Origin: Promethearchaeia archaeon
GTDB lineage: Archaea > Asgardarchaeota > Lokiarchaeia > Sigyniarchaeales > SOKP01
Direction: 5' to 3'
Length of the DNA stretch: 12,046 nt
NCBI GenBank assembly: GCA_046497275.1
Contig: JAWOFX010000164.1
Location: 1 to 12,046, forward strand
In this document: positions 4,647 through 10,163 of the stretch, one piece after another
Layout of the letters: every line of letters begins with the position of its first letter
Numbering within the stretch: the first letter of the stretch is position 1
Notes under the pieces: generated by a model
Databases searched by the model: none
The model's input: only the letters and a program-made list of their open reading frames with translations
Told to the model about the DNA's origin: nothing
Position numbers and translations under genes: made by a program

Positions 4647-6173
4647 ATGAATGATATACAAAATGCATATGAGGATATAGAGGATATTGTTGGAACCAAA
4701 TATGTCACTGATTCTGATGCCATCTGTTATTCTTATTCAATGAATTGTGATACGGTTCTTCAAGGCATACCCGATATCGTTGTCAAACCAAATTCCTCTG
4801 AAGAGATTTCAGAAATCCTTAAAGTAGCAAACCGATATAAAATTAAAGTAATCCCTCGAGGTGGTGGTGCCGATCTTACAGGCGGAGCAAAACCTATTGG
4901 GGATGGGGGTATCGTGGTGGATATAACGCGGATGAATAGAGTCTTGGATGTGGATGAGGAAAATCATATTGTCACAGCAGAATGTGGTATTTCTTGGAGT
5001 GAATTATGCGAATACTTGAGAAAGGTAGGTATTGGATATTACACAGGCTCAACAGGACCGGGATCTGGATTCTCTGCAACCATTGGTGGTGGACTCTCAA
5101 ATAATACATTAGGTGGCGGAGGTGCGGCGATGTATGGCAATGTTACTGAACAATGTGTTGGATTAGAAGTTGTACTTCCCACTGGGGAGATAATTTATAC
5201 TGGCGCTAAGGCAAATTCATTTTGCGAAAAACCATTTACAAGATTTGGGTTGGGTCCAGATTACTCGGGACTCTTCTTGGGGGATGTGGGAATTCATGGG
5301 ATTAAGACGAAAGCTTCCTTACGATTATATCCAATACCGGAATATGCAGCTTATAGTACATACGAGATTAATGATAGCCAAGATAAAGCTGAGTATTTAA
5401 AAGCGATGGAAGTAATGCAGAAGTGGCAACATCACCACTTATCACTTCACGATTTTTATTATTATACAAAGGGATATACTAAACTTCTCACTACTTTTCA
5501 AATCAAAAAAAACTTAGCAAATGCGGGGGTTGAGGGGAGTGTAATGTTTTATACCACTGTGGCAAACTCTCAAAAAGAATTAGATGACAATGTTGAGAGA
5601 ATTGAAAAAATAGCAAAAAAAGGAGATTTAAAGAGATTGGGGGATAGTATTGAAGAAGGTAATTTAGGCAAATGGTTTTATGAAGAGGATGGGAGATGGC
5701 AATGGGCACACGTCTATTGGGGATTATATGGTACAGAAGGAACCAGTTTGGGTTCTTGCCTGAAATGTCCAACGTATCAATTACCAGATTATATAAAATT
5801 ATATGAAGATTGGGCAAATCGAAACCGAGAGAAATTTTGGGATATCGGAGGAGGAGGAGCAAATTTTCTTGTGATTGGCTGCTACCCATGCTATATTGAT
5901 ATCACTGGGGGGATAACGCTTCACACTGATAAAAAAAATCGGAAACTTCAATATGAATTATGGGAGGACTTAATCTTATCTCAAATAAAAGATTTAGGGG
6001 CAATTCATTATTGGATGGGCGAGATTATCGGAAGAGCGTTAGTAGATTCTGGTGCTCTCAAGAAGGAATATTATGATTTTATGATTACTGTTAAAAAAGC
6101 ACTTGATCCCAATGGAATAATGAGCCCGGGAAAATTTTATTTAGGAGAAAAGTATCAAGAGGAGGGTAGATAA
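4647..6173 (+). CDS. FAD-binding oxidoreductase (VAO/PCMH; GlcD / D-2-hydroxyacid dehydrogenase-like)
   Basis: 'PDIVVKPNSSEEISEILK', 'IPRGGGADLTGGA', 'ATIGGGLSNN', 'GLEVVLPTGEI', 'GIHGIKTKASLRL', and C-terminal 'KKALDPNGIMSPGK'. Confidence 0.9.
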   Translation: MNDIQNAYEDIEDIVGTKYVTDSDAICYSYSMNCDTVLQGIPDIVVKPNSSEEISEILKVANRYKIKVIPRGGGADLTGGAKPIGDGGIVVDITRMNRVLDVDEENHIVTAECGISWSELCEYLRKVGIGYYTGSTGPGSGFSATIGGGLSNNTLGGGGAAMYGNVTEQCVGLEVVLPTGEIIYTGAKANSFCEKPFTRFGLGPDYSGLFLGDVGIHGIKTKASLRLYPIPEYAAYSTYEINDSQDKAEYLKAMEVMQKWQHHHLSLHDFYYYTKGYTKLLTTFQIKKNLANAGVEGSVMFYTTVANSQKELDDNVERIEKIAKKGDLKRLGDSIEEGNLGKWFYEEDGRWQWAHVYWGLYGTEGTSLGSCLKCPTYQLPDYIKLYEDWANRNREKFWDIGGGGANFLVIGCYPCYIDITGGITLHTDKKNRKLQYELWEDLILSQIKDLGAIHYWMGEIIGRALVDSGALKKEYYDFMITVKKALDPNGIMSPGKFYLGEKYQEEGR

Positions 6174-7399
6174 TGAGTAGAACTGAAAATAGTTTAGAGA
6201 ATCTAAAAAAAGTGAAAGACGAAGCATTATCATGTGTACATTGTGGACAGTGCCGAGTAGCACATTGGCCAATGCAGAATTTTTATTATATCTGTCCCGT
6301 TTATAAATCAGATCTTATTCCCAAATTCGAACCATATTTTGCGCGCGGAAAAAACATCATACTAAAGGGATTATTATGGGGGGATTTGGAATTAAACGAA
6401 GAAGTTAGTGAGCTCTTTTATCAATGTTCCTTATGTGGAGCTTGTGAGGAATTTTGTCATAACTCAATGAATGACAATATAGATTTCCCCACTCACAAAT
6501 GGACAAATATGGTTGAAGTATTTGAAGCTTTACGAGCAGATTTAGTAGAGGCGGGTTTTGCGTTGGACGGACATGTGTCTATGAACAAAGCATTAGTGGA
6601 ATTGAATAATCCATATGAACGGGACAATCAAGAAAAAAATAATTGGACTGACCAGCTTGATTTTAAAGTTAAAAATGCTTCAAAAGAACATACGGATCTT
6701 CTTTATTATGTGGGATGTACTGCAGCACTGACTCCAAAGATTCAAAATATCCCGATTTATACATCAAAGATTTTGCATAAACTTGGAATTGATTTTGGAA
6801 TTCTTGGAGAGAATGAAATATGCTGTGGAAGCGTTGCGATGAGAACTGGCGATCGAAAAGCTTTTGAAACGGTTGCAGAAAGAAATGTTCAGATGTTCAA
6901 AGACTTAGGCATAAAAACTATTATAACGAGTTGCGCGGGTTGCTATAGGACCTTAAAAAAAGATTACAAAACTAGGTTAGAAGGTATAAATGTCTATCAC
7001 ACGGTCGAATTCTTACAGAAGTATTTCAATGAGAATAATGTTAAACTCAAAAATTTAGGGAGTACCACCACATACCACGATCCTTGTCATCTTGGGCGTC
7101 ATATGGGAATGTATGAAATTCCGCGTGAGCTATTGAAGCAAGTATCTCATCCTACAGAAATGCAGACAAATCGACAAAGTGCCATGTGTTGCGGAGCAGG
7201 GGGTGGACTTAGGAAAGGAAATACGGAACTCTCCTTAGATCTTGCAAAAAATCGCATCCGTGAAGCTAAGGAGACTGGCGCAGAAAATTTGGTAAGTACC
7301 TGCCCATTTTGTTATCGAAATTTGTCAGACGCTCTCGAAGAATTAAATTGCGAGATTAAGATGATTGATCTGGTTCAATTAATATATGAAAATATATGA
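6173..7399 (+). CDS. (Fe-S)-binding protein, GlcF/HdrD-like, 2x[4Fe-4S] plus two CCG domains
   Basis: CVHCGQC...CP and CSLCGAC...C ferredoxin motifs; YVGC, EICCG, SCAGC, YHDPCH, CCGAGGG, CPFC. TAATG overlap with the FAD gene and SD GGAGGG at 6161-6166. Confidence 0.9.
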   Translation: MSRTENSLENLKKVKDEALSCVHCGQCRVAHWPMQNFYYICPVYKSDLIPKFEPYFARGKNIILKGLLWGDLELNEEVSELFYQCSLCGACEEFCHNSMNDNIDFPTHKWTNMVEVFEALRADLVEAGFALDGHVSMNKALVELNNPYERDNQEKNNWTDQLDFKVKNASKEHTDLLYYVGCTAALTPKIQNIPIYTSKILHKLGIDFGILGENEICCGSVAMRTGDRKAFETVAERNVQMFKDLGIKTIITSCAGCYRTLKKDYKTRLEGINVYHTVEFLQKYFNENNVKLKNLGSTTTYHDPCHLGRHMGMYEIPRELLKQVSHPTEMQTNRQSAMCCGAGGGLRKGNTELSLDLAKNRIREAKETGAENLVSTCPFCYRNLSDALEELNCEIKMIDLVQLIYENI

Positions 7400-7717
7400 G
7401 AATTCTTCAAAATTATCATTTACGACATTAAATGCCTTTTTAACTGAAAAATCAAAATATTCTTGTTTAGGAATTTGTGTATTGTCCCAAATATAGTTGT
7501 CAAGCATTTCAAATGCTTCTCCATTAAGATCCTTTACTTTTTTATCCAAAACATTTGAATAATCTAAGATCATCTCGTTGTTGGAAATTAACACATAGTC
7601 CTTGAATTGAAAGTTCTTACAATCTGGATAGGGTGGAATACATCCGCAATTTTCAAACTTTTTACAATAGGAACAAAAATGAAAGAAAATTTGAAATTTT
7701 GCGGCGTCTAGACGATT
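7379..7717 (-). pseudogene. Start-less or truncated small Cys-rich ORF (hypothetical)
   Basis: The frame of the listed 71-aa ORF (GTG 7594) stays open for 41 more codons to an in-frame TAA at 7720-7718. That extension contains CSYC-x5-CGC-x6-C but no ATG/GTG/TTG. Confidence 0.35.
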
Positions 7718-10083
7718 TTATCGAATCTTTTAAATATAAATTTTCAAATACATATAAAATAAAAAAATATTAGTAGCGTATGGATAATAGGGATTTAAGA
7801 CTTTCTTGCGATTCGGGTCATAGAAGATGTTCTGACAATGATAATCATTCAGATATTTTTAGAGAGGATAGTGTTTTCATTATAAAACGGGAACGCATTG
7901 AAGAAATGAAATCGGTGATTGACGAAAAAGGGCGTTATTCCGCCGAGACGATACGGATTTCTCGGGCTAAATTTGATTTAAAAGAGTTGGATCGCCTTGC
8001 TAACCGCTCCCGAGCACTCGCGAATGACACATTATATTTATTACGACAATACCATTTTTATCATACTACTAACGATATTGAGAAGAAGAACTTCTATCAT
8101 AGAAATGTTGGTGATAAATTTTACAAAACCATAAAAAAATCCGAATATCCAACTGAGAAAAAAAATGCCGCTGTAGAAATTTTGAATGAACTATTTTTCA
8201 ATTTTAGGGCTTTGAAGAGCACCATTCCAACGATAATGAAATTTATGGAATCCTACAAGGACATAGGATATTCTCCTTGTGCTCAAGCGATCGTTAAATC
8301 CGTGTGTGAAACTTTTATCAGTCATCTAAAATTAATAGAGGAATGGGAAAACGCCCCCAAAAATCAACGCGGACAAAAACCATCACGACCTGGTCTACCC
8401 CGATATTTTGGCAAAAAGATAGCGGGAGAGCGAGTGGGAAAGTGGAAATTGATTTATCCGAAGCAAAGGCTCGCTCACGCTGGGAACAAGGAAAGCAAGG
8501 ATAACGCCCTCGAAAACCAGCAATATACTTGTTATATGTATGTACCGCCCTCACACGATCATTTAATTCCCAGAATACGGGTCAGAACAAAAGTGCTATC
8601 TCAATTGCTCAGAAACGGTGGGTTTGTGGAGATTATTCCCTGCGGGAAAAATTACTCATTTAACATCCATTATATCAAGACCAAAGAACAACGAGCCAGA
8701 GAATATGGTCTCGATCTCAATAGATACGAGCAGAACCCTAATAGAGCAATTTCTATCGACTTCGGAGTAAATAATTTCCTTACTATATTCAATAATTTTG
8801 GTGCGAAATTCCCTATATTTAAAGGCTCAGCAATAAAGCGTTGGAACTACAGGATAAATCATAAAGTTCCCGCACTGCAACGAAGATCTGATGTGATTGC
8901 CGACGTGCTAGAGCGGTATGAAAAAAATAAAAAAGTGGGAACATTTCTTTCATTAGAATCAATTATCAATTCTCGAATTCACACCTATCACGACGAGTTC
9001 GGGAAATTGAAAAGAATGATTCTTTATATATTTAAAAAGTTTTCTGATCTTTCACAGTTGGATACTCACAGTTTAGACAATCAAGCCATTGTTCTCAAAT
9101 GTTTTCGTTCCAAATCATTTTATGGGACGGTAAAAATCACGAATTGGGATAACTTTAAAAAACTTGCTGAGAGTGACGGAAAAAGAGTCTATAAAGGCAT
9201 TTTCAATAAGATTAGAAAAATTATCTTGATGGAGAGTGCTCCACGTGAGAGAAATTCTCTCTTACTTTCGTATTTTCGCTATCTGCAGGATAAAAGGGAT
9301 CGTAAAATATGGATTCTCAAAAAGATTTTTGGATATTCAATTCAAGATTTACAAGATTATTTGGAATTATTTGAATTAAAAATCGATGAGATATGGGACA
9401 AATATAAACGAGTTAAGCGGGACGCTATTAACAAGATCGCTAAGAAACTCTTCTATTATTGCCTATACTATGGAATAGGGACAATTACTTTCGGTTATAA
9501 CAAAGGATGGCAGAGCAATGCTGTTAAACTCAAGAAATTAACCAGAGATTTATTTGTTTCCTTACCGTTTAACCAAGTGTTAGAACGAATTCAAGTGGAA
9601 GCGATTTATTTTGATATTACGGTTGATTATACGCCAGAATGGTATACCAGCAAATGCTCATATATCGACGATGAGCCAATTAGGAAAGAAGCAGAAAATA
9701 ACTATACTGGATTACGCAGATTTACTCAAAACAAGATACAACATAACGGATTATTTCGATCAAAGGACGGATACATCATTCACGGAGATATCAACGGTGC
9801 TGCAAATATCGGCAAGAAAAAACATCCAGATTTATTTTCAAAAAAAATGATCGCACACAATTTAAGCCTAACCGATCAAACAAGACAAAAAGTTACCAAA
9901 TTTATCACCACCCCGCCCATAAAGTTTTCCCCTTCAAATGGAATTCCCACAGAAGAGTTAAAAAGGAAGAACAGATTAAATAAAAGTAAGGTTAAACCAC
10001 AAAGGTATCAAATGAGTCCAAGAGAATTTTTGAAAATGACTCAAACTGCCTATGTGTAGTAGTACTACCTAATACCAATTCAC
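7700..10083 (+). mobile_element. Putative non-autonomous IS200/IS605-family (tnpB-only) element; boundaries approximate
   Basis: tnpB without adjacent tnpA. Hairpins occur near both ends (7705-7714, 7831-7853; 10004-10050, 10056-10068), and TTCAC at 10079-10083 is a candidate right-end motif. The element sits between unrelated metabolic gene clusters. Confidence 0.5.
7780..10059 (+). CDS. tnpB: Very large TnpB-like RNA-guided RuvC nuclease (IS200/IS605 OrfB family) with rearranged catalytic site and a large insertion
   Basis: N-terminal 'KELDRLANRSRALANDTLYLLRQ' and 'AQAIVKSV...RPGLPRY' REC/WED motifs; RuvC-I 'AISIDFGVNNF' (D327); 'ITFGYNKGW'; 'PEWYTSKCSYIDDEPI' (E620); 'GLFRSKDGYIIHGDINGAANI' (D670). 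A possible true start is ATG 7906 (MKSVIDEK). Confidence 0.9.
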   Translation: MDNRDLRLSCDSGHRRCSDNDNHSDIFREDSVFIIKRERIEEMKSVIDEKGRYSAETIRISRAKFDLKELDRLANRSRALANDTLYLLRQYHFYHTTNDIEKKNFYHRNVGDKFYKTIKKSEYPTEKKNAAVEILNELFFNFRALKSTIPTIMKFMESYKDIGYSPCAQAIVKSVCETFISHLKLIEEWENAPKNQRGQKPSRPGLPRYFGKKIAGERVGKWKLIYPKQRLAHAGNKESKDNALENQQYTCYMYVPPSHDHLIPRIRVRTKVLSQLLRNGGFVEIIPCGKNYSFNIHYIKTKEQRAREYGLDLNRYEQNPNRAISIDFGVNNFLTIFNNFGAKFPIFKGSAIKRWNYRINHKVPALQRRSDVIADVLERYEKNKKVGTFLSLESIINSRIHTYHDEFGKLKRMILYIFKKFSDLSQLDTHSLDNQAIVLKCFRSKSFYGTVKITNWDNFKKLAESDGKRVYKGIFNKIRKIILMESAPRERNSLLLSYFRYLQDKRDRKIWILKKIFGYSIQDLQDYLELFELKIDEIWDKYKRVKRDAINKIAKKLFYYCLYYGIGTITFGYNKGWQSNAVKLKKLTRDLFVSLPFNQVLERIQVEAIYFDITVDYTPEWYTSKCSYIDDEPIRKEAENNYTGLRRFTQNKIQHNGLFRSKDGYIIHGDINGAANIGKKKHPDLFSKKMIAHNLSLTDQTRQKVTKFITTPPIKFSPSNGIPTEELKRKNRLNKSKVKPQRYQMSPREFLKMTQTAYV

Positions 10084-10103
10084 AAAAGTGTTGATGGTCT
10101 ACA
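9830..10103 (+). ncRNA. Candidate omega-RNA (reRNA) overlapping the tnpB 3' end, with a possible guide after 10083
   Basis: Established for TnpB: the omega-RNA derives from the element right end and overlaps the ORF 3' end. Seen here: nested stems GGTA/TGCC, TGAGTC/GACTCA, CAAGA/TTTTG (10004-10050) and GTAGT/ACTAC (10056-10068). Boundaries are guesses. Confidence 0.35.
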
Positions 10104-10138
10104 GAGATGTGCACTCTTAAAAATGCATATGAATCTCT
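10103..10138. terminator. Imperfect hairpin between convergent genes
   Basis: AGAG-ATGTGCA-(CTCTTAAAAA)-TGCATAT-GAAT-CTCT: a 7-bp inner stem with one G-U pair plus a 4-bp outer stem. Confidence 0.25.
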
Positions 10139-10163
10139 CTAATGAGAAAATAATATAAAAAAA

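Follow-up and report, generated by a model that had tools for sequence, protein, structure and literature searches.

The locus

The DNA analysed here, referred to below as the window, is a stretch of 12,046 nucleotides (contig JAWOFX010000164.1 of assembly GCA_046497275.1) in which an inserted mobile element of ~2.74 kb (7391..10128) carries a tnpB gene (7780..10059, 759 codons plus stop; features lie on the + strand unless stated otherwise). The gene product is almost certainly a member of the TnpB family of OMEGA nucleases, and its host a Lokiarchaeia-like Asgard archaeon. Divergent from tnpB, the element also carries a small conserved antisense open reading frame (ORF), and its right end is a candidate part of the scaffold of an omegaRNA. 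The protein has a long insert, predicted to be helical, between two helices of its RuvC domain.

A preliminary description made from the letters of the window had placed an enlarged TnpB of 759 residues at 7780-10059, with an insertion of ~165 residues at about aa 370-535. The gene is indeed an uninterrupted frame of 2,280 nt with neither stop nor frameshift, and the Pfam model OrfB_IS605 matches aa 315-369 with 36.6 bits against a cut-off of 30.5; the coordinates given for the insert, nt 8887-9384, are likewise correct, and the two helices that were quoted as flanking it are found at aa 347-369 (FKGSAIKRWNYRINHKVPALQRR) and aa 535-557 (IDEIWDKYKRVKRDAINKIAKKL). The Cas12f1-like TNB model of Pfam gives a weak match at aa 597-677, and the WED, REC, RuvC and TNB parts of the TnpB core are all present. 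A single-sequence search of PDB sequences with the 759-residue protein returned no match; a profile derived from an alignment of its homologues matched TnpB and Cas12f structures in the PDB with E values of 1e-12 to 2e-16.

The size of the insert was measured in an alignment of 116 sequences, including 93 ordinary relatives with a median length of 450 residues that were collected by an exhaustive HMMER search. The columns of aa 370-535 hold 166 residues here, compared with a median of 14 (range 6-86) in the ordinary relatives, and in the paralogues the OrfB_IS605 profile is broken into positions 10-65 and 71-119, which flank the insert. Enlargement is not restricted to this site. The expansion of the REC region that had been proposed for about aa 95-150 amounts to some 32 residues at aa 96-150, and the basic C-terminal tail, also anticipated, exceeds the tails of ordinary relatives by 47 residues and has a pI of 10.6; further excesses are 35 residues in WED (aa 193-310) and 47 at the N terminus. 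The insert itself is basic, with a net charge of +11 and a pI of 9.6.

Homologues and the origin of the insert

The genome is a 3.85-Mb metagenome-assembled genome (MAG) of 188 contigs that is 98.9% complete, and homologues sharing the insertion were found both within it and beyond it. It holds about 10 diverged tnpB copies with 71-81% amino acid identity, at least eight of which have the insert, together with fragments. About 20 homologues from other assemblies are 64-78% identical and 740-865 residues long, those with names being recorded as TnpB of 'Candidatus Lokiarchaeota'. Eight distant large relatives (674-1806 residues, 23-30% identity), recovered by the exhaustive HMMER search, also align through the insert, for which they have 131-167 residues; those with names derive from Promethearchaeota or Lokiarchaeota MAGs, plus one Kosmotogaceae MAG. 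Across the enlarged clade the insert varies between 131 and 168 residues. In a maximum-likelihood tree calculated without the insert columns, all insert-bearing proteins fall into one clade (SH-aLRT 96), which is nested within ordinary proteins of 400 residues and has P0042/P0044 as its sister. Their monophyly on an insert-free tree is therefore consistent with a single origin of the insert.

An assembly chimera had been named at the outset as a finding that would undo this picture. Apart from the fragmentation of the MAG into 188 contigs, nothing was found in support of a chimera or a mis-joined ORF, whereas at least eight contigs of the genome, assemblies produced independently at JGI and NCBI, and the distant relatives all have this architecture, and the insert is under purifying selection. 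Because the insert is common to homologues, a chimera is ruled out, and we give this explanation practically no credence.

Comparison of six paralogues (median dS ~0.7) gave a dN/dS of 0.24 for the whole protein, 0.13-0.15 for RuvC, 0.30 for the insert and 0.27 for the tail. From these values the insert is a constrained part of the protein, although less so than the catalytic core. It is this tail, the coding sequence of which extends into the right end of the element, that has the lowest dS.

The distribution of the family is patchy. Among 400 genomes searched with the insert-region profile, full-length matches occur in seven species-level genomes out of the 135 that make up one family of the phylum, and a near-full match in an eighth (positions 41-204, with one internal stop), the remaining matches being short and C-terminal; matches to a single-sequence query are limited to three of the seven genomes of the genus. 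No description of an enlarged Asgard TnpB clade was met with in the literature searched; its members stand in public databases as TnpB, and the published TnpB tree probably includes them without a name of their own.

Three observations on individual members of the clade may be recorded here. The metagenomic protein P0031, at 1806 residues, belongs to the enlarged clade through its C-terminal ~650 residues, and its N-terminal ~1150 residues have no Pfam match; a gene fusion or a faulty gene call could explain this. On contigs C25, C108 and C128 of the genome (L006-L008; P0006-P0008, P0013), a subfamily of copies has a different upstream region that is in frame with tnpB and adds an N-terminal extension of ~100 residues, resulting in open frames of 859-879 residues. 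Lastly, the 158-kb contig that encodes the distant enlarged relative P0034 also carries, 2.5 kb downstream of its gene, a second TnpB-like gene of 600 residues (L015 9499-11301).

Active site and class of the nuclease

The first acidic residue of the RuvC domain is Asp327 of RuvC-I (motif ISIDFG, codon GAC at 8758..8760), which is invariant in 116 of the 116 aligned sequences. At the canonical position of the RuvC-II glutamate stands a glycine, Gly572 (TITFGYNKGW, 9493..9495), and a relocated glutamate, Glu620 (PEWYTSKCS, 9637..9639), follows 48 residues downstream. These two residues, and Asp670 of RuvC-III (HGDINGAANIG, 9787..9789), are each at least 90% conserved in the same alignment, and Asp670 is invariant in the enlarged clade. 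Sequence conservation thus identifies an Asp-Glu-Asp triad of D327, relocated E620 and D670. The TNB region between the last two (9640..9786) has just one cysteine, C626, and no CxxC pairs, as is likewise the case in the aligned relatives, and the C4 zinc finger is therefore absent. On the strength of these motifs we consider it probable that the protein is a catalytically competent nuclease.

In RIIr-5 TnpBs the canonical glutamate has become a glycine and is offset by an alternative glutamate, and loss of the zinc finger has been documented in some branches of TnpB (PMC10691335). Glu620 fits the description of RIIr-5, and, as assigned by motif description, the protein is of the already described RuvC-II-rearranged type, its motifs being those of RIIr-5 in particular. 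It has in common with the RIIr-5 clade, and with archaeal branches related to it (Altae-Tran et al. 2023, PMC10691335), the change from Glu to Gly, the alternative Glu just before the TSK motif and the lost C4 zinc finger; its nearest sequence relatives, of ~400 residues, have the same active-site motifs and are 22-32% identical overall and 31-46% identical from RuvC-II to RuvC-III. It differs from the rearranged-type relatives in being ~310 residues longer, with a helical module of ~150 residues between two RuvC helices and enlarged REC, WED, N terminus and tail, in having HGDxN rather than NADxN at RuvC-III, and in that no TnpA was found with it. The earlier suggestion of an enlarged lineage is supported, the enlargement being common to a clade of homologues; the active site, which is of a known rearranged type, had gone unremarked there.

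The minimal OMEGA nuclease, ISDra2 TnpB (PDB 8exa, 8h1j), is 408 residues long; its glutamate stands at the canonical position, its zinc finger is present, a TnpA is its partner, and it reads a heteroduplex of ~12 bp (PMC10097598). The enlarged protein, by contrast, has the relocated Glu, no zinc finger and an added module.

What defines Fanzors is the combination of a C-terminal shift of the RuvC-II Glu with a DPG motif in RuvC-I (bioRxiv 10.1101/2023.08.09.552727). Identity as a Fanzor or pro-Fanzor was considered and ruled out because the RuvC-I motif, SIDFG, has D-F-G and not DPG, although the shifted Glu is present. Fanzor1 and Fanzor2 are eukaryotic and viral relatives of TnpB, whereas the enlarged TnpB has an archaeal host and, unlike Fanzors, falls among prokaryotic TnpBs without DPG in the tree. 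Nothing supports a direct link from Asgard archaea to Fanzors.

Predicted structure of the insert

An AlphaFold model built on the 116-sequence alignment (pLDDT 87.7, pTM 0.83) replaces one from 16 close homologues (pLDDT 45.8). In it, the three strands of RuvC-I run into a 37-residue helix (aa 350-386, nt 8827-8937), which is followed by six helices (aa 392-424, 434-443, 445-453, 456-465, 472-483 and 488-515; pLDDT about 89-97) and then by a 43-residue helix (aa 521-563, nt 9340-9468) that leads to strand beta-4. The insert is thus all-helical at high predicted confidence, and the RuvC helix pair, normally a short hairpin, is predicted to be lengthened into a stalk capped by a helical bundle of aa 392-515. 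The preliminary description needs correction on one point, the naming of the second flanking helix as the bridge helix. That segment is part of the RuvC helix running into beta-4 (aa 521-563); in Cas12 terms, the equivalent of the bridge helix is the Arg-rich helix directly after RuvC-I (aa 350-386).

Searches for relatives of the insert outside its own family were negative. Its profile gave only chance-level matches to PDB sequences (E >= 0.04), the insert alone matched only members of the enlarged TnpB family itself in a set of 5.8 billion proteins, and an Atlas feature search with the insert gave scores below 0.9 and no lead. Internal duplication is not supported, hhalign comparison of the insert profile with the protein's own REC, WED and RuvC-II segments giving probabilities of at most 1.2%. 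Searches with the whole model found no entry with the full architecture in either of two incomplete libraries; the best TM by query was 0.44 in the AFDB clusters, and 0.51, for a TnpB of 473 residues, in the ESM Atlas. Because both libraries are incomplete, these negatives are no proof of novelty.

In Cas12b, Cas12e and Cas12i, the REC2/Helical-II domain lies between the bridge helix and RuvC-II. The RuvC domain of Cas12j3 is split by the STP domain, attached via two long bridge helices, and its hybrid is limited to 17 bp (PMC8298400). The helical module of the enlarged TnpB occupies, in the AlphaFold model, the RuvC-internal position used by Cas12j (PMC8298400): as in Cas12j/CasPhi, where the domain is known as STP or RecII, an extra domain sits between RuvC-I and RuvC-II on two long helices (PMC8298400), and the overall size of Cas12j-type proteins, 700-800 residues, is similar. 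With chains of the Cas12j type and of REC2-bearing Cas12 enzymes, the model can be aligned over 400-446 residues, compared with 289-381 for TnpB and Cas12f. The likeness does not extend to sequence, neither sequence nor profile comparison having detected any similarity of the insert to Cas12j-type domains, nor to context: no CRISPR array or cas genes were found, and the clade in which the insert arose belongs to TnpB and not to Cas12. The RuvC helix pair has been named REC2, and it is described as elongated in Fanzor1 (Yoon et al., bioRxiv 10.1101/2023.08.09.552727). In Cas12a and Cas12m, REC2 is located in the REC lobe (PMC10442227), and the proposal that the insertion is at a REC2-equivalent position is therefore limited to those Cas12 subtypes that have REC2 inside RuvC.

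The minimal TnpB reads ~12 bp; for reading of the distal end, Cas12 enzymes acquired either REC2 or dimerisation (PMC10097598, PMC10442227). A REC2-like role for the insert, to which topology and charge only would point, is no better than an evenly balanced proposal, and we put it forward tentatively. A different role in an otherwise active TnpB is less probable still, and we regard it as rather unlikely: the insert could be a coiled coil for dimerisation or partner binding, an additional surface for the omegaRNA scaffold, or a regulatory lid. Its lack of detectable relatives or any known domain, its faster evolution compared with the core and its variable length would suit such a role, as would the precedent of Cas12f, which handles the distal end by a dimer and not by REC2 (PMC10097598); a partner could be supplied by the product of the small antisense ORF, which is conserved and travels with the element, or by a host factor. 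Set against this, any such partner is hypothetical, the module is basic, and its insertion point and two-helix stalk are those of the STP domain of Cas12j (PMC8298400) and of the REC2 helices of Fanzor1 (bioRxiv 10.1101/2023.08.09.552727).

The mobile element and its ends

That tnpB sits in an insertion of 2.74 kb follows from the orthologous locus of a congeneric genome, G274, which lacks the element. On contig C104 of G274 (L027), the window's two flanks are separated by 470 nt of DNA that is dissimilar to the element; homology to the orthologous flanks stops at ~7389/7390 and resumes exactly at 10129. The insertion site falls in the last codons of an upstream gene for a CCG-domain protein. 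ATGAA is found on both sides (7386-7390 and 10129-10133), and may be either a 5-bp duplication or microhomology. In the G274 locus (G274:C104:7600-9600), the 3′ end of the CCG-domain gene is present once more, in diverged form, and there is a spacer of ~280 nt with a 75% match in contig C154 of the genome of the window (G000:C154).

Homology between copies begins at ~7401 and ends at 10128. As other copies extend farther left than ~7401, with a second small ORF, the left part of this copy appears truncated, that is, its left end seems shortened relative to theirs. The copies are mosaic at their left ends, and many stop at contig edges. Upstream of tnpB, an AT-rich region (7690..7779) with a TATA-like sequence, TTTTAAATATAAAT, at 7728-7741 is near-identical in copies C92, C118 and C71 and is a putative promoter.

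The right end (9985..10128) consists of the last 25 codons of tnpB, its stop and 69 non-coding nucleotides (10060-10128). Conservation between copies ends sharply at position 10128, where the sequence reads ...GTGCACTCTTAAAAATGCAT. Over the final 79 nt, identity is 86-94% among nine ends, namely those of eight copies and an end without tnpB (C115:3726), and falls to 78-81% for a pair of degenerate copies on C185; the coding sequences of the copies are 76-84% identical. The end terminates in a hairpin, GTGCA-N10-TGCAT, of which the stem is kept and the loop varies in length among copies, and the sequence directly 3′ of it is different in every copy. This organization makes the right end, which takes in the last codons of tnpB, a candidate for the 3′ part of an omegaRNA scaffold, in which case, by the model of IS200/IS605 OMEGA systems, the flank at 10129..10148 is a candidate guide.

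At the end without tnpB (G000:C115:3726, L024), the right end is followed by TCCAATTCCTTTAGATTCTA, GAT and the same 20-mer again, which could be either a 23-nt tandem duplication or a guide beside its own target with a TAGAT-like target-adjacent motif (TAM).

The copy in the window has some features that set it apart. Compared with all other members of the family it has private in-frame deletions of 7 residues after ~aa 186 and of 8 residues after ~aa 696, and Asp612 where all others have Gly. These changes, together with its shorter left end and a small ORF whose C terminus has been replaced by non-homologous sequence that is partly flank, are what could be expected if this copy were a decaying and non-functional relic even if the family is active. 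We think this unlikely, given a 2,280-nt frame without stop or frameshift, the retention of all catalytic and most invariant residues, and an intact right end.

The preliminary description was right that the window has no CRISPR array, cas gene or tnpA: repeat scans found neither tandem repeats nor CRISPR-like spaced repeats, and the annotated ORFs include no tnpA and no cas gene. No Cas1 was found in the 98.9%-complete genome, and no CRISPR arrays were noted in the gene lists of related loci, where a repeat scan was not run. No other TnpB family occurs in the genome, the enlarged copies being its only OrfB_IS605 matches. Because many TnpBs are solo, the missing TnpA does not exclude membership of the TnpB family.

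These circumstances also raise the question of domestication, that is, whether the diverged paralogues serve as RNA-guided nucleases for the host or its defence, or as regulators, with the 3′ end giving a fixed guide RNA. No TnpB-associated transposase of any kind was found in the genome, nor any OrfB_IS605 match other than the enlarged copies, and the copies are old, yet most of their frames are open and under purifying selection; archaeal tnpB genes in general show little recent mobility (PMC10691335). We nevertheless hold domestication to be improbable, more so than a decayed copy. Beyond the right end each copy has a sequence of its own, as guides derived from the flank should, the element is absent from the orthologous site in the congeneric genome, truncated copies and the right end without tnpB are typical of decaying mobile DNA, the family is confined to three of seven genomes of the genus and eight of 135 of the family, and the catalytic residues are intact, unlike those of most exapted TnpBs (PMC10691335).

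A proposed mode of operation

The explanation that we favour, with reasonable but by no means full confidence in it as a whole, is that the gene encodes an active omegaRNA-guided nuclease of the rearranged-Glu TnpB type, from a lineage that gained a REC2/STP-like module without CRISPR association. The right end overlapping the 3′ end of tnpB would be transcribed into the omegaRNA, the guide being the flank directly 3′ of 10128, and the ribonucleoprotein would cut guide-matching DNA next to a short TAM. The helical module would reach over the TAM-distal part of the guide-target heteroduplex, in the manner of the RuvC-inserted REC2/STP domains of Cas12j and Cas12b and of the lengthened helix pair of Fanzor1, and could allow a monomer to read a longer duplex than the ~12 bp of a minimal TnpB. 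The spread of the copies would have been due to a trans-acting transposase, by now either missing or unrecognisable.

A number of observations weigh against this explanation. The RNA fold z-score of the right end is only -0.89, which is not significant; the 17 predicted pairs mostly tolerate changes by way of G-U, with two-sided change in only 1 of the 17 in a 15-sequence alignment; and an Rfam search of the right end found no relevant family. Neither a Y1 TnpA (PF01797), nor a serine recombinase (PF00239), nor a Cas1 was found in the 98.9%-complete genome or next to the relatives, the contigs of which measure 6-158 kb. With a dS of about 0.7 and an amino acid identity that does not exceed 81%, the copies are old and give no sign of recent mobility, and the copy in the window has the shortened left end, the two private deletions and the Asp at conserved Gly612 described above. 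Finally, the role of the insert is read from a predicted structure, the insert columns of which come from 23 sequences only.

A bolder version can be stated, to which we attach less confidence than to the foregoing scheme and which is at present a possibility rather than an expectation: a CRISPR-free, transposon-borne TnpB lineage may independently have built a RuvC-internal REC2/STP-like domain, resulting in a monomeric, Cas12-sized OMEGA nuclease with a long guide, possibly with the small antisense protein as an accessory. If so, accretion of REC2-type domains would not be an adaptation to CRISPR immunity and could be selected in a transposon or a domesticated life style. The clade has a domain of Cas12-like topology with no array, cas genes or transposase, and if the role of the domain is the same, the trait can arise before or without CRISPR association, as it did in the eukaryotic Fanzor1. 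A monomeric TnpB of 740-760 residues with a relocated glutamate, and possibly a longer effective guide, would also be a new scaffold to test for genome editing. Furthermore, the existence of ~10 diverged, still-open copies without a recognisable transposase bears on what maintains solo tnpB genes in archaea.

The small antisense ORF and neighbouring genes

The small ORF that diverges from tnpB (7382..7594, − strand) encodes 71 residues from a GTG codon, or 64 from the first ATG at 7573; its homologues in other copies have 61 residues from their ATG according to the gene-caller annotation. It is conserved in six copies, in which dN/dS is 0.13 in its own frame compared with 1.07 and 1.65 in the other frames, and it is under strong purifying selection. 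Because the element carries this conserved ORF, tnpB is not strictly solo, and the term, as first applied to it, was too strong. The only homologues of the small protein are hypothetical proteins of 61-87 residues, and neither Pfam nor the Atlas provided a lead; the small ORF that lies upstream in the locus of a distant relative, L015, has no homology to it. Its last six or seven codons (7382-7400) are outside the homology between copies, and the last three (7382-7390) are flank as judged by G274. In the other direction, the stop-to-stop frame extends to 7717 (−) and includes a Cys-rich stretch, CSYCKKFxNCxC...PPYPxC, without a start codon, that is degraded in some copies.

To its left (window 4647-7399), the element adjoins genes for FAD-linked oxidase and Fe-S proteins of GlcD/GlcF-like type. 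Neighbours of the same type are found at the unrelated metagenomic P0009 locus (L013 8479-10215), which could be a coincidence or could reflect shared synteny.

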